Positions 6,286 to 25,382 of a DNA stretch of 64,000 bases are shown here, one piece after another (the first letter of the stretch is position 1; each line of letters begins with the position of its first letter). The notes beneath the pieces are model-generated. The model was not told the DNA's origin. It saw only the letters and a program-made list of their open reading frames with translations, and searched no databases. Source of the DNA: Dictyostelium discoideum (taxonomy: Eukaryota); NCBI GenBank assembly GCA_000004695.1, contig CM000153.2:1856001-1920000 (forward strand), read 5' to 3'. The translations under genes and the position numbers were made by a program.

Positions 6286-7782
6286 ATGTTTTTAACAAGT
6301 ATATTATATACAATTATAATAATTTTAATATTCTATAAAGGTTTAGAAGTAAATTATTTTTAATTAATTAAAATTCATATATTTTTTTTTTTTTTTTTTG
6401 AAATATAATTTCTAACATTTATTTTTTTATTTTTAGTATTTAATTGAAAAAAGATCATTCCCTTTAGTACACCCAATTAAAGGTGTTATGAATGGTACAA
6501 AACCATATTTTATATTTGGTGATTTACCATTTCAAAGATTATTAAACCTTAAACCAAAATTAAAAGAACTAGGAAGTATTTATTTTAGATGGTTCTTTTG
6601 GTATCCAATAGTTGAAATTAAAGATATAAATGCAATTCAATATGTTTACAATGAAAAGTCAAATAATTATAGTCTTTATTGGAATTTAAATAAATCTAGT
6701 AATTTCATTTTAACAGGTTCAGAAATTAAAAGATTCTTTAGAATTTATTATTGTGCATTCAATTGTAAAGATTCATTACAAAGAATTATGCCAGTTATAA
6801 AATCACAAGTTTTTGATTTCATTCATTCTCACAAATTTCAAAATTCAACATTATCAACAAATGATGATGTTACAAATGTAATTTTTTTCAATTATTATTA
6901 TTAATATTATTAATATTATTTATTAATTTTTTTTTTTTTATTTCGAAAAAGTTTATGTTAAAATTATTAAGTAGAGTTTATTTAGGTAGTAGTGATGAAG
7001 CATATCATTGCTTTAAAGCAAATTATAAAAAATTTAATAAGAGTTATTTAGACTTTTTTCATTATTTATTTCCAACATTATTAAAGATACCAAGTAAATT
7101 CTCAAGAAAATATATAAAGAATAAGAATAAGAGAGCTTTATATCAAGTGTTAGCAATGAAAGCTTATTATGGTGTTGTTAAACAATCAAGTGATGATCAT
7201 ATTGAAGAATCAATGATAAATATAATAGCAGAGACAAGTTATAATGATAAAGAGGGGTTATCTCTTGAAGAGATAAAAATGCCATCCTATTTATTAAATG
7301 CATCCTCAATTAAAGGCCCAATGATAATGGTAGAGAATTTAATGTTTCAATTGATAGAAAAATCAGAGATTGAAAGTAAAATTCGTAAAGAGATTAAACT
7401 TGTATTTGAAAAGAATGGTAAAGATGTAAATTCATTTGATTTTGATGATATAATGGAAATGAAATACTTAGAAGCAACATTGGATGAAATTAATAGATTA
7501 TATCCACCATTTCCAAAATTAATGCCACGTCAAACTAAAGAATCTGATAGAATCTTAGGATATCATATACCAAAGGGTACCATGATATCATGTCCTGTCG
7601 CTGATATACTTAGAGATCCTTCCAATTTTCAAGACCCATTAACATTTAAACCAGAACGTCAATTAATTTTCTCAAATCCTAAATTTGCATCACCATCGAT
7701 TACTTCAATTCAAGAAATTAATGGATTAAGTAGTTCTTCTTCAAATTCATTTGCATTACATCATAGATCATTACCATCAATT

Positions 7783-22240: not shown

Positions 22241-22262
22241 TTAAAAACAAAATTTTCTATTA
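22241..22262. repeat. Target-site duplication, copy 1 (TTAAAAACAAAATTTTCTATTA)
   Basis: Perfect 22-nt direct repeat of 23524..23545, flanking the retroelement-derived insert. Confidence 0.6.
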
Positions 22263-22436
22263 TAAACAAATTTTTTTATTAAAAACTTTTTTTTTTAATT
22301 GAATGCTCAATCCATTTTTATTTTTTTTTTGAATTGGATAACGCAATTATTATTTGCTTCTCCTTGTGATGCTAGATCTCATTTTATTTTATTTTTTTTT
22401 TTTTTTTACAGGGTCTCTAAAAGAGGGGTTGGTTTA

Positions 22437-22484
<48 letters not shown>

Positions 22485-22775
22485 TTTCGAATTTTGAATG
22501 TATTATTACTTTTGATTAAAACATCTTTTTTGTTCAAACTTTTTTCTAAATCTTTTTTTATTTTATCGTCTGGTTCGTGATTGATGTTTATGACGTATTT
22601 GAATTGTTTTTTTTTTAATTGAGTTTTATCCACAATTTCGCTTATTTTTTGTAGGCATTTGTGTTGCTTAATATTTGTGGTGTTGTTTGTGATTTTCATT
22701 TTATTTTCTTTCTATTTTTTTTATTTTTCTTTAAAAAGTTAAAAATCTGGAAATTTTCTGATTAACTTGGGTTCC

Positions 22776-22837
<62 letters not shown>

Positions 22838-23523
22838 TTATTTATAGAAAGTACTGAGTGAATTATTGTATTTTTTGAGATGTTTAGGAAGTTCTATTGC
22901 GTGGAGAGGTGAGTTCCATTGTCTGCTAAATTGTAATAGCTTTAGCGAGATTAGTGAGTCTAATTTATTTTGTTCTTCTGGCCGTTGCTTTGATTTGATT
23001 CTTAATGTTTTGTTTATAACCGCTTGTGTCCTGTCCCATGCAGCTCTTTGTGTTTTAATTAGTTCACGTATGACTTGTTGTCTGTGAATTATTATTTCTT
23101 TTTCATCGTGAATGAGTTTATTTCTTTTGTGCCAGATTTTTTCGAATATAATAGCTATTAAATTGGCGACTAGTGCAATTTGTAGATGGTTTAAAATCTT
23201 CACATTCCAGGTGTGAGTGGTGTGTCCACACTTAGTTAGGGTGTAGTTGAAGATTTCTTGTGTGTTTTTGATGTGGGCTTTGCAGTTGAAGAATATATGT
23301 TCTGAAGTCTCATCTTCCCCACACTGTTGGCATGGCATGTTGTATTTTTTTGGTAGTGCTTTCAGTGTGTATCTCCATAATAGATCTCTACCTTTCATGT
23401 TTATTATTTTTTTGATTTCTTTAAATGGAAGGTGTTTGCTATTAATTTTGGTCATTATTTCTTTTTGGCCAGGAGTTGGTATGAATTTGTTGTGTTCAGG
23501 AGATTGAGTTGTCATCATTTTTA
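22263..23523 (-). mobile_element. 5'-truncated tRNA-gene-targeted non-LTR retrotransposon fragment (TRE5-like), composite 3' region with two oligo(A) tracts
   Basis: On the minus strand, an ORF2 C-terminal fragment (23533..22838) is followed by a short 3' UTR and A(about 58) (+ strand T-run 22780..22837). After about 330 bp of unique sequence, a second A(45) (+ 22439..22483) and about 175 bp extend to the TSD. The insert is bounded by the 22-bp direct repeat. The 5' end lies about 20-42 bp upstream of tRNA-Ile, divergent from it. Confidence 0.55.
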
Positions 23524-23533
23524 TTAAAAACAA
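22838..23533 (-). CDS. Non-LTR retrotransposon ORF2 C-terminal fragment (231 aa) with Cys-His motif
   Basis: CQQCGEDETSEHIFFNC fits the C-x2-C-x7-H-x4-C motif found at the C-terminus of L1-clade ORF2 proteins. Basic, RT-thumb-like sequence lies upstream. The ORF starts abruptly about 33 bp from the tRNA with no RT or EN domains, which indicates truncation. Confidence 0.5.
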   Translation of the reverse strand: MFLIKMMTTQSPEHNKFIPTPGQKEIMTKINSKHLPFKEIKKIINMKGRDLLWRYTLKALPKKYNMPCQQCGEDETSEHIFFNCKAHIKNTQEIFNYTLTKCGHTTHTWNVKILNHLQIALVANLIAIIFEKIWHKRNKLIHDEKEIIIHRQQVIRELIKTQRAAWDRTQAVINKTLRIKSKQRPEEQNKLDSLISLKLLQFSRQWNSPLHAIELPKHLKKYNNSLSTFYK

Positions 23534-23545
23534 AATTTTCTATTA
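23524..23545. repeat. Target-site duplication, copy 2
   Basis: Identical to 22241..22262. It ends 20 bp upstream of the tRNA-Ile 5' end. Confidence 0.6.
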
Positions 23546-23565
23546 AAAAAAAAAATCCATCGAAA

Positions 23566-23638
23566 GCTCGATTAGCTCAGTCGGCAGAGCGTGGTGCTAA
23601 TAACGCCACGGTCGCAGGTTCGATCCCTGCATCGAGCA
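23566..23638 (+). tRNA. tRNA-Ile (anticodon AAU)
   Basis: GCTCGAT/ATCGAGC acceptor stem, D-arm TAGCTCAGTCGGCAGAGC, anticodon stem TGGTG/CGCCA with loop CTAATAA, B box GGTTCGATCCC, discriminator A, then a T5 Pol III terminator (23642-23646). Confidence 0.9.
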
Positions 23639-23668
23639 AGTTTTTACATGATGTTTACACATATCGCA

Positions 23669-23679
23669 GGTTCGACTCC
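23669..23679 (+). promoter_or_regulatory. Extra B box (ex-B) downstream of tRNA gene
   Basis: GGTTCGACTCC, a second B-box consensus about 31 nt past the tRNA 3' end, as found after many Dictyostelium tRNA genes. Confidence 0.5.
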
Positions 23680-23988
23680 TTACTTGGGATTGAGGTCCTC
23701 TTAAATAAAATAGATAAAAACACAAGTGTGGCACCCTAACCCTTTTTGAGACCAAATAAAAGGGTTGGGTACTTCTCTTTTTTTTTGTGTTTATTTTTAT
23801 TTTTAAACAATAAAAAAAAATGAAAAAAAAAAATTAAATAATTTTAGGGTTTTAAAAAATATATACACAAATAAGTTAATTTTAAAACTATCATTATAAG
23901 TTAATTAAACATTTATTAACAAAAATATATATATATTAAAAAAAAAAAAAAAAAAAAAATTAAACTCCTATTATTTTTTGAAAACTAA

Positions 23989-24309
23989 CCAATAATCAAA
24001 AAAGAATGGATACCACTCAAAAGAATAAAATTAGATAATAATATAAATTATAATAATAAAATAATACCAAGATACATTTTTATTAATATTATTGAATCAA
24101 TAATTAATTATTTATGGTTAAAAAGAAAACTTGATAATAATATTATTTATAATTATGAAATAAAATATTATTATTATATTAATGAAATAATAACATTATC
24201 ATTGGTATCAAAAGATTGGTTTAAAATTATATCAAAATTACTAAATAATATAATTGATAATAATAGATTAGAATATTGGTTCAATATTTTTTGTATCATG
24301 TCCTTGTAA
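23989..24309 (+). pseudogene. Possible F-box/FNIP-like N-terminal gene fragment lacking a start codon
   Basis: The open frame reads ..IPRYIFINIIESIINYLWLKRKL..INEIITLSLVSKDWFKIISKLLNNIIDNN.., an F-box-like LP..I...I...L....L.LVSK.W pattern. It has no in-frame ATG, the only ATG (24006) is in another frame and closes after 10 codons, and downstream coding-like pieces (24452..24700, 24803..24997 with (CAA)20) are in different frames. Confidence 0.2.
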
Positions 24310-24841
24310 ATTCCATTTATATTGTGTTTGTAATGATTTTCAAACTAAATATCAAGATTATATTAGAAATAATGATTATAATCACAATGATGAAAATTTA
24401 AAAAAAATTTTTAATATATTAAAAATAATTTCAAATGGTATTAAATCATTATTGTCTTCAACATCATCATTGGAATATTTCAAAATTAATACATCAATTG
24501 TACTTTGTAATGATACATTCTCTAAATTAAATGAAAATAAATCAATTAAAACCTTAGTATTTGAAAATGGGTTTAAATATAAAGGAAAAGATACAGAAAA
24601 TGAACAATTCCACAAAAATCATTATTATGGTATTATTCAATATTTAATAGAAAATGTATTCAGTGTAGCAACTTCAAATATTTTCTATAGAGAAAATTAA
24701 ATTCATATACAATCAATATTTAAATTAATTTTAAATCATATAAATACAATTCAATTATATTCAATCAAAATAAAAATAACTGAAAATATTTTAGAATCTA
24801 CATTGGATGAAATTGTTAATCTATCAGATAAATTCTCTGAA

Positions 24842-24906
<65 letters not shown>

Positions 24907-25382
24907 CTCAAATCTATCATTTAAGAATTTAGTTGAATTTAAAATCATTGTTGTCAAAGACTCTGAAATTGGTAATACTAAACAATATCAATTATAACTA
25001 AAAGAAAAAAATAACAAACTTTGTCATTTCGCTGTTTCAGTTTTACATCATAACAACAGATAATAAAAATACATATTATAAATTAATTAAAAAAATAAAT
25101 AGTTTTATTTTAAGAAATATATATATATCTATATTTGGTTATTTTTATTATTATTAATGAAATTGAAATTCCAAATGGTGAAAATTGGCCAATTAGTGAG
25201 CATAGTGCTTTCAATTTACAAAAAAAAAGAAAAACCAATTCTTTGAGATAATATTATTAATAATTGTGAAAAATAAAAGAAATAAAAAAAAAAAAGATTA
25301 CTCTGTATTATTAATTAATTTAATAAAAGTTTATTTATTTTGCTTTATTTTTTTATTTTGTCTTTATTAATATTTATTTTTG

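Follow-up and report, generated by a model that had tools for sequence, protein, structure and literature searches.

We describe an inserted retroelement in a 64,000-nucleotide stretch of Dictyostelium discoideum DNA (NCBI GenBank assembly GCA_000004695.1, contig CM000153.2, positions 1,856,001 to 1,920,000 of the forward strand), referred to below as the window, in which positions are counted from the first letter. The left-hand gene encodes phospholipase B-like protein D (plbD, Q54PS7), and a gene with a Gad2 domain lies to the right. The insert occupies the plbD–Gad2 intergenic region of D. discoideum, as indicated by the GC content of the window (~20%), by the 99% identity of the open reading frame 2 (ORF2) fragment in the insert to D. 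discoideum proteins, and by plbD as the neighbor. Next to it is a tRNA-Ile(AAU) gene whose internal B box (GTCGCAGGTTCGATCC, 23611-23626) matches the B-box consensus and which is matched by a published IleAAU primer; it is this RNA polymerase III gene that directed the insertion. The inserted DNA spans 22287-23517 on the minus strand and is very probably a single recent, 5'-truncated insertion of the non-LTR retrotransposon TRE5-A, of the ORF2-containing TRE5-A.1 type, upstream of the tRNA gene. The features, including the two copies of the target-site duplication (TSD), are as follows:

22241..22286, plus strand: native target DNA on the side distal to the tRNA, made up of array units 1 (TTAAAAACAAAATTTTCTA) and 2 (TTATAAACAAATTTTTTTA) and of unit 3 as far as its 8th nt
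22273..22286, plus strand: left (3'-side) copy of the TSD, TTTTTATTAAAAAC, an exact repeat of 23518-23531 with T10 directly after it
22287..22296, minus strand: terminal oligo(A)10 adjoining the TSD, read from the sequence
22297..22320, minus strand: non-canonical 3' extension TAAAAA-TGGATTGAGCATTCAATT, absent from every other TRE5 copy examined
22321..22330, minus strand: canonical oligo(A)10 tail directly after the C-module, from the alignment to copy L001 and the listing of T-runs
22331..22438, minus strand: C-module, 108 bp without the flanking A-run, ending GCGTTATCCAATTC, near-identical to L001
22439..22483, minus strand: internal oligo(A)45, the spacer between B- and C-module, seen as T45 on the plus strand and of another length in L001
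22485..22779, minus strand: 3' B-module of 295 bp, which duplicates the 5' block with the ORF1 start codon (ATG at 22697-22699)
22780..22835, minus strand: internal oligo(A)56, the spacer between the ORF2 stop region and the B-module, seen as T56 on the plus strand and in the L001 alignment
22838..23517, minus strand: 5'-truncated ORF2, the last 226 codons with the TAA stop (22838-22840), homology to L001 starting at 23518/23517
23518..23531, plus strand: right (5'-side) copy of the TSD, adjoining the truncated 5' end; the flank of allele L007 aligns from here
23524..23565, plus strand: native upstream flank of the tRNA gene, with array unit 3 (right 22-mer, 23524-23545), then A11, then TCCATCGAAA
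23566-23638, plus strand: tRNA-Ile(AAU), called by ARAGORN and matched by Rfam RF00005 with 64.1 bits

Read along the minus strand, the element thus runs from the ORF2 C-terminus through A56, the 295-bp B-module, A45 and the 108-bp C-module to an A-tail. The initial annotation, made from the letters alone, had recognized a 5'-truncated, tRNA-gene-targeted TRE5-type element, and the element can now be specified as TRE5-A. Its estimates of about 58 adenosines for the first run and about 330 bp for the unique block between the runs were right as to the features and too high as to the lengths; the second run of 45 and the roughly 175 bp that follow it (176 bp, 22263 to 22438) were read correctly.

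The ORF2 fragment that had been recognized on the minus strand lies in the open frame 22838..23533 and holds CQQCGEDETSEHIFFNC, a C-x2-C-x7-H-x4-C motif at residues 63-79 of the fragment (23282-23332). UniRef names the 99%-identical D. discoideum proteins reverse transcriptase zinc-binding domain proteins. The Pfam match to zf-RVT is weak (E=0.016, below the cutoff) and is the only one, the same search detecting no reverse transcriptase domain. Because the copy is truncated at 23517, the A-module promoter, the 5' B-module, ORF1 and the APE (endonuclease) domain are absent. Since promoter, ORF1 and endonuclease are missing and no reverse transcriptase domain was detected, the copy is non-autonomous and cannot move by itself.

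The two modules of the 3' untranslated region (UTR) were identified by comparison with further copies. The segment 22830..22489 is 97.7% identical to 6158-6498 of L002, a copy with the structure AB-ORF1-BC that resembles TRE5-A.2, and this part of L002 contains the start of a 444-amino-acid ORF1 (6288-7622, beginning MKITNNTTNIKQHK). The 3'-most ~95 nt of the C-module (22321-22416) are 92.7% identical to the same copy, and the end of the module, GCGTTATCCAATTC followed by A10, is common to L001, L002 and L010. Element homology stops at 22331 plus the A-tail. Counting from 22331 as position 1, all four of the nucleotides mutated in a study of the TRE5-A.1 C-module, C38, A35, C26 and T15 (numbered from the 3' end), are matched (PMC3159450). 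The published lengths compare less exactly: the B-module is given as ~290 bp against 295 bp here, and the 134 bp given for the C-module are reached only by counting part of the preceding A-run.

The 97-amino-acid open frame 22406..22699, pointed out in the initial annotation, does exist on the minus strand. We rejected it as a gene, as it is the ORF1 start of the B-module read through the A-run, as poly-lysine, into the C-module; its homologues are short hypothetical proteins only. Such proteins in strain AX4, DDB_G0282561 and DDB_G0280833, are likewise ORF1-start fragments in TRE5-A B-modules, and the same is seen in several assemblies; these entries are probably annotation artefacts of TRE5-A 3' UTRs. 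According to published work, the C-module is a weak antisense promoter to which CbfA binds. The one retained here might therefore still yield antisense RNA, as a candidate weak antisense promoter.

Assignment to TRE5-A relies on an independent copy and on the known members of the group. The independent copy, L001 (GCA_054883475.1), lies 46 bp upstream of a tRNA-Met gene within a 12-bp TSD and has the same layout, ORF2-A(n)-295 bp-A(n)-108 bp-A(n). The window copy is 99.2% identical to it (gaps not counted) between 23518 and 22331 and on into the A-run; apart from 9 substitutions, the two differ only in how long their two internal A-runs are. The ORF2 of the window is open and colinear with the 443-amino-acid ORF2 tail of L001. 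The initial annotation had found the 3' part unusual in being composite, and had proposed either a module arrangement or a second 3' fragment, nested or co-inserted. Because an independent copy has the same arrangement, the composite end belongs to the element, which rules out the nested or co-inserted fragment; it is the canonical B- and C-module 3' UTR of TRE5-A with oligo(A) spacers.

A 3' B-module is present only in TRE5-A, as TRE5-B and TRE5-C lack it and TRE5-B also lacks a C-module (PMC3159450); the same modular description of TRE5-A is given elsewhere (PMC5911963). With TRE5-A.1 (formerly DRE) the window copy shares the 3' order of ORF2 zinc finger, B-module, C-module and oligo(A), the four C-module positions, the location 48 bp upstream of a tRNA gene with the 5' end facing it, a TSD that is short, and loss of the 5' part as is typical of target-primed reverse transcription. 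It differs in keeping only ~1.19 kb of the 3' end of a full ~5.65 kb (numbering of PMC3159450) and in carrying an extra 24 nt and a second A10 past the normal A-tail. The non-autonomous TRE5-A.2 (AB-ORF1-BC, as in L002) shares its B-module with the window copy, as well as the C-module's 3' part, but lacks nearly all of ORF2 and has a C-module of ~87-90 nt, whereas the window copy has 226 ORF2 codons and a full C-module; it therefore originated from an ORF2-containing, A.1-type transcript.

The resemblance to TRE5-C, represented by L008, L009 and an insertion in L006, extends to the targeting geometry (L009 lies ~48 bp upstream of tRNA-Asn), to a related ORF2 tail (43-52% amino-acid identity) and to a related C-module, those of L008 and L009 being about 76% identical in nucleotides to that of the window. 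In L008 and L009, however, ORF2 and A(n) lead straight into the C-module with no B-module between, and the 3' end of TRE5-C is GCGTTATTCCAT(CC/T), whereas the window has a B-module and a TRE5-A terminus. TRE5-B, a relative of TRE5-A, also targets sites upstream of tRNA genes (PMC4559204), but the window copy has both of the modules that TRE5-B is reported to lack at its 3' end. The copy is thus neither TRE5-B nor TRE5-C. By B-module, C-module, ORF2 zinc finger, spacing and TSD it is a member of TRE5-A, and only features removed by the truncation fail to match.

Two of the comparison copies have peculiarities of their own. An older TRE5-A copy, 92.4% identical, lies at L010 3900-4673 upstream of a tRNA-Glu gene; through an internal deletion, the last ~31 nt of its C-module directly follow the end of the B-module. 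Another element, which encodes RVT_1 and has the same orientation, lies 1.4 kb further on, and the two may form a TRE tandem. At L009 4901-4945, ~55 bp past the 3' end of the TRE5-C-like copy, there is a partial duplicate of the 5' half of tRNA-Asn, including its first upstream bases (AGCCGCTCGCTCTACCCACTGAGCCATCCAGGCATTTTTGAT).

The boundaries of the insert are marked by an exact 14-bp direct repeat, TTTTTATTAAAAAC, at 22273-22286 and 23518-23531; an exact 14-mer of this kind is expected to occur 0.12 times per window. The right copy adjoins the first base of element homology and the left copy adjoins A10 on the element strand, and this 14-bp repeat is the true TSD (13 bp if the first T belongs to the element). 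In the four other copies that were read, TSDs measure 12-15 bp. From the element's 5' end at 23517 to the start of tRNA-Ile at 23566 there are 48 bp, and the two are divergent with their 5' ends facing each other; the element therefore points away from the tRNA, as the initial annotation had it, although the insertion point had been placed too close, about 20-42 bp upstream. The distance from TSD to tRNA is 34 bp, and the geometry is the same in L001. TRE5-A integrates 47 +/- 3 bp upstream of tRNA genes (PMC5391098), and the published targeting in general is 44-54 bp upstream with the element's 5' end facing that of the tRNA (PMC3159450, PMC5391098, PMC5911963).

The orthologous plbD loci of other assemblies (L003-L007) provided filled, empty and independently hit alleles of the site. 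Strain ACTFIT (L005) has the same filled site, 98.9% identical over 3.7 kb and 99.9% within the element, while in ACTFIR (L003) and ACTFIW (L004) the site is empty, with plbD followed by about 180 bp and then tRNA-Ile. The insertion is thus polymorphic among strains, present in the window and ACTFIT and absent from ACTFIR and ACTFIW. Both empty alleles carry homologues of 22263-22286 (TAAACAAATTTTTTTATTAAAAAC), so this stretch is target DNA and not part of the element. In ACTFIY (L007, Dictyostelium cf. discoideum) a different insertion starts at -47, and the native 47-nt flank of this allele aligns end to end with 23518-23565, including TTTTTA. When the empty site of the window was rebuilt with the 14-bp TSD and aligned to the two empty alleles, scores of 97 and 84.5 were obtained. 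An 8-bp TSD, CATTTTTA, with 22263-22320 taken as native throughout, was also tried and rejected, as its scores were 81.5 and 68.

Two alleles of Dictyostelium cf. discoideum show further insertions at the same tRNA gene. At L007 7840-7927 a short foreign C-rich segment (CCCCCTCCCCTGTCTCCTCCCCCCCCCCC) ends exactly 47 bp upstream of tRNA-Ile, with no match to the TRE5-A or TRE5-C copies compared here. ACTFIZ (L006 7820-8757) carries an independent TRE5-C-like fragment at the orthologous tRNA-Ile, in the same orientation, with its own 13-bp TSD (TTTCGCCGACTTT) and its 5' end ~42 bp from the tRNA.

The initial annotation had drawn the boundaries differently. It took a perfect 22-nt direct repeat as the TSD and 22263-23523 as the insert, placing the 5' end 42 bp from the tRNA. 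The repeat is real: the 22-mer TTAAAAACAAAATTTTCTATTA stands at 22241-22262 and 23524-23545, and the pair is perfect and far beyond chance. When up to 3 mismatches were allowed, the 22-mer had 3 matches in the window, whereas 100 dinucleotide-preserving shuffles gave a mean of 0.32 and none reached 3. On this account all of 22263-22330 would be the 3' end of the insert, TTTTA (23519-23523) would be untemplated filler, and the empty site would consist of a single 22-mer directly followed by AAAAAAAAAAATCCATCGAAA, without the spacer TAAACAAATTTTTTTA; untemplated nucleotides at TRE5-A 5' junctions are indeed documented (PMC5391098). The empty alleles, a comparison the initial annotation had itself suggested, speak against it and largely refute it, as they contain the homologues of 22263-22286, and the supposed filler TTTTTA lies in the native flank of L007. 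The empty site rebuilt with a 22-bp TSD also scores lower (74.5 and 70), the 42-bp spacing falls outside 47 +/- 3 bp where the 14-bp TSD gives the canonical 48 bp, the insert would end in AATAAAAAAATTTGTTTA and not in an A-tail, and a 22-bp TSD departs from the 12-15 bp of the other copies. In addition, the exact 14-mer repeat and a third, degenerate copy of the 22-mer with 3 mismatches (22260-22281) would be left as coincidences; neither of these, nor the end of element homology at 22331 plus its A-tail, had been noticed in the initial annotation. A 22-bp TSD is thus very improbable. Instead, the 22-mers come from a native tandem array of 19-bp units, which was split by the insertion 8 nt into unit 3. 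In the rebuilt empty site TRF calls a period of 19 with 3.6 copies, 86% matches and a score of 110, the units being TTAAAAACAAAATTTTCTA, TTATAAACAAATTTTTTTA, TTAAAAACAAAATTTTCTA and TTAAAAAAAAAAATCCATC in order. Each 22-mer consists of one unit, unit 1 or unit 3, and the TTA that follows it, and the match at 22260-22281 is the degenerate unit 2. With the 14-bp TSD, the predicted empty site is accordingly the 22-mer, TAAACAAATTTTTTTA, the 22-mer again, A11 and TCCATCGAAA. The possibility raised earlier, that the repeat might belong to a longer segmental duplication, was therefore half right, since the repeat does come from a local duplication and not from a TSD, and the duplication is a short tandem array.

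The one part of the insert that sets it apart from the other copies is the 24-nt extension between the canonical A-tail and the terminal A10 (22296-22287 on the element strand). It is present in both filled alleles, window and ACTFIT, and absent from L001, L002, L010, L008 and L009; in L001, L002 and L010 the A-tail leads straight to the flank. Its 18-mer, TGGATTGAGCATTCAATT, had no other match in the window, the fetched loci or two scans of the JGI metagenomes. That the 18-mer represents a TRE5-C 3' end, or that of an older variant of TRE5-A, is ruled out by L008, L009 and L010, and a diverged tRNA-Ile 5' flank (ATTGAATGCTCAAT against ATCGAAAGCTCGAT) was rejected because 827/2000 shuffles score as well. 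We favor 3' transduction, at about even odds, since the whole insert lies within a single TSD of the usual kind and the stub is unlike the terminus of either TRE5-A or TRE5-C. In this case the extension would have entered with the same event through read-through of a TRE5-A source copy: the source would have been transcribed past its own A-tail, the RNA polyadenylated ~20 nt after the AATAAA at the junction of tail and flank, and this RNA retrotransposed. Such an AATAAA is formed by A10-T-A5. Transduction of the LINE-1 type likewise has extra sequence between the element's own A-tail and a second A-tail inside one TSD, with AATAAA about 20 nt before the second tail, but here the segment is only 24 nt long and no source locus was identified.

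A history in two steps would explain the same segment as an older poly(A) retroelement stub (TGGATTGAGCATTCAATT with A10, 22287-22314) inserted with the 14-bp TSD, followed by TRE5-A at -48 in the proximal TSD copy with a 6-bp TSD of its own, TTTTTA (22315-22320 and 23518-23523). Indeed, the native sequence at -48 begins with the same 6 nt, TTTTTA, as stand between stub and A-tail, a coincidence whose chance we estimate at roughly 0.4^6; TRE-TRE tandems are said to be typical where a tRNA gene is targeted again (PMC5391098), and the independent hits at the orthologous tRNA-Ile in L006 and L007 make repeated insertion plausible. However, the 18-nt stub is unlike the 3' terminus of TRE5-A or TRE5-C and has no match in the fetched DNA, an insertion of 18 nt would be an extreme truncation, and a TSD of 6 bp and a first nick at -42 would be unusual beside TSDs of 12-15 bp and the first nicks inferred at -34/-35 (-34 in L001 and the window, -34/-35 by junction reading in L009 and L010; L006, at about -30, is an exception). 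We consider two steps unlikely. A template switch, starting on an unrelated cellular RNA ending in UGGAUUGAGCAUUCAAUU-A(n) and jumping after ~24 nt to the poly(A) of TRE5-A, would account for one 14-bp TSD around the whole insert and for the equal A10 runs on either side of the extra segment. Here the jump would have to occur ~24 nt in, mid-template, for which we found no documented TRE5-A case, and the window, the fetched loci and the JGI metagenomes contain no candidate donor RNA; this origin appears improbable.

Several observations weigh against a single TRE5-A insertion with a 14-bp TSD as we describe it. Between the canonical A-tail and the left TSD copy lie 34 nt of non-canonical sequence, and the identity of TTTTTA (22315-22320) with the first 6 nt of the TSD also fits a tandem history in two steps. 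The flank is low-complexity and AT-rich, and MAFFT placed the rebuilt sites ambiguously. TRF calls no 19-bp array in the empty alleles L003 and L004, which leaves the perfect match between units 1 and 3 in this lineage only partly accounted for. Folded at 37°C, the final 54 nt of the C-module are not significantly more stable than shuffled sequences (z = -0.8), the published fold having been computed at 22°C. Finally, the family assignment draws on architecture, on related copies found through their protein and on statements in papers.

The pathway that we propose for the observed boundaries, TSD, orientation, spacing, truncation point and filled/empty polymorphism is that of target-primed reverse transcription. 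Judging from the TRE5-A literature, the pre-integration complex would have been tethered to TFIIIB/TFIIIC on the tRNA gene, with targeting through contacts of the ORF1 protein with TFIIIB on the TFIIIC-loaded gene (PMC3159450, PMC5391098, PMC5911963). The ORF2 endonuclease would then nick the plus strand about 34 bp upstream of the tRNA, and the 3'-OH at the nick would prime reverse transcription from the poly(A) end of the RNA. Abortion of reverse transcription, or early joining of the cDNA, ~1.19 kb into the element would produce the 5' truncation, and a staggered second nick at -48 would generate the 14-bp duplication.

The DNA downstream of the tRNA gene has features of its own. A B-box-like motif (ATCGCAGGTTCGACTC, 23663-23678) lies ~25 bp downstream of tRNA-Ile; it is a near-duplicate of the internal B box and is conserved in the empty alleles L003 and L004. 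It is presumably the 'ex-B' box that many Dictyostelium tRNA genes are known to possess. Further downstream, ~95 bp from the tRNA, there is a GC-containing inverted repeat (ACCCTAACCCTTTTTGAGACCAAATAAAAGGGTTGGGT, 23733-23770) with a T-run after it; an Rfam search gave no match. The ~1.5 kb from the tRNA to the Gad2-domain gene (23690-25228) is a strain-variable segment: BLAST shows nothing similar to it in the 435 bp that ACTFIW has at this position (L004 8102-8536), and it is partly common to ACTFIR (L003 9016-9742, about 85%). A small gene is called within it, of 198 amino acids in L005 and 314 in L003.

The modular B/C 3' UTR of TRE5-A, its targeting to 47 +/- 3 bp, its 5' truncation and its TSDs are familiar from the literature, and about a quarter of the tRNA genes in D. 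discoideum have a TRE5-A copy. The insertion at tRNA-Ile(AAU) is a known element behaving as expected, and nothing in it departs from known TRE5-A behavior except the short 3' extension. The value of the analysis is therefore mainly corrective, in that it shows the composite tail to be canonical and traces the 22-bp repeat to a minisatellite of the target site, not to a TSD; it adds little new biology, with the 3' extension as the only feature possibly worth a genome-wide look. The independent hits at the orthologous tRNA-Ile in sister lineages indicate recurrent targeting of a single RNA polymerase III gene. If the extension did arise by transduction, TAAAAATGGATTGAGCATTCAATT-A10 would be a case, caught in the act, of the process proposed for acquisition of the TRE5-A C-module (PMC4559204), and the 18-mer would tag an active source copy.

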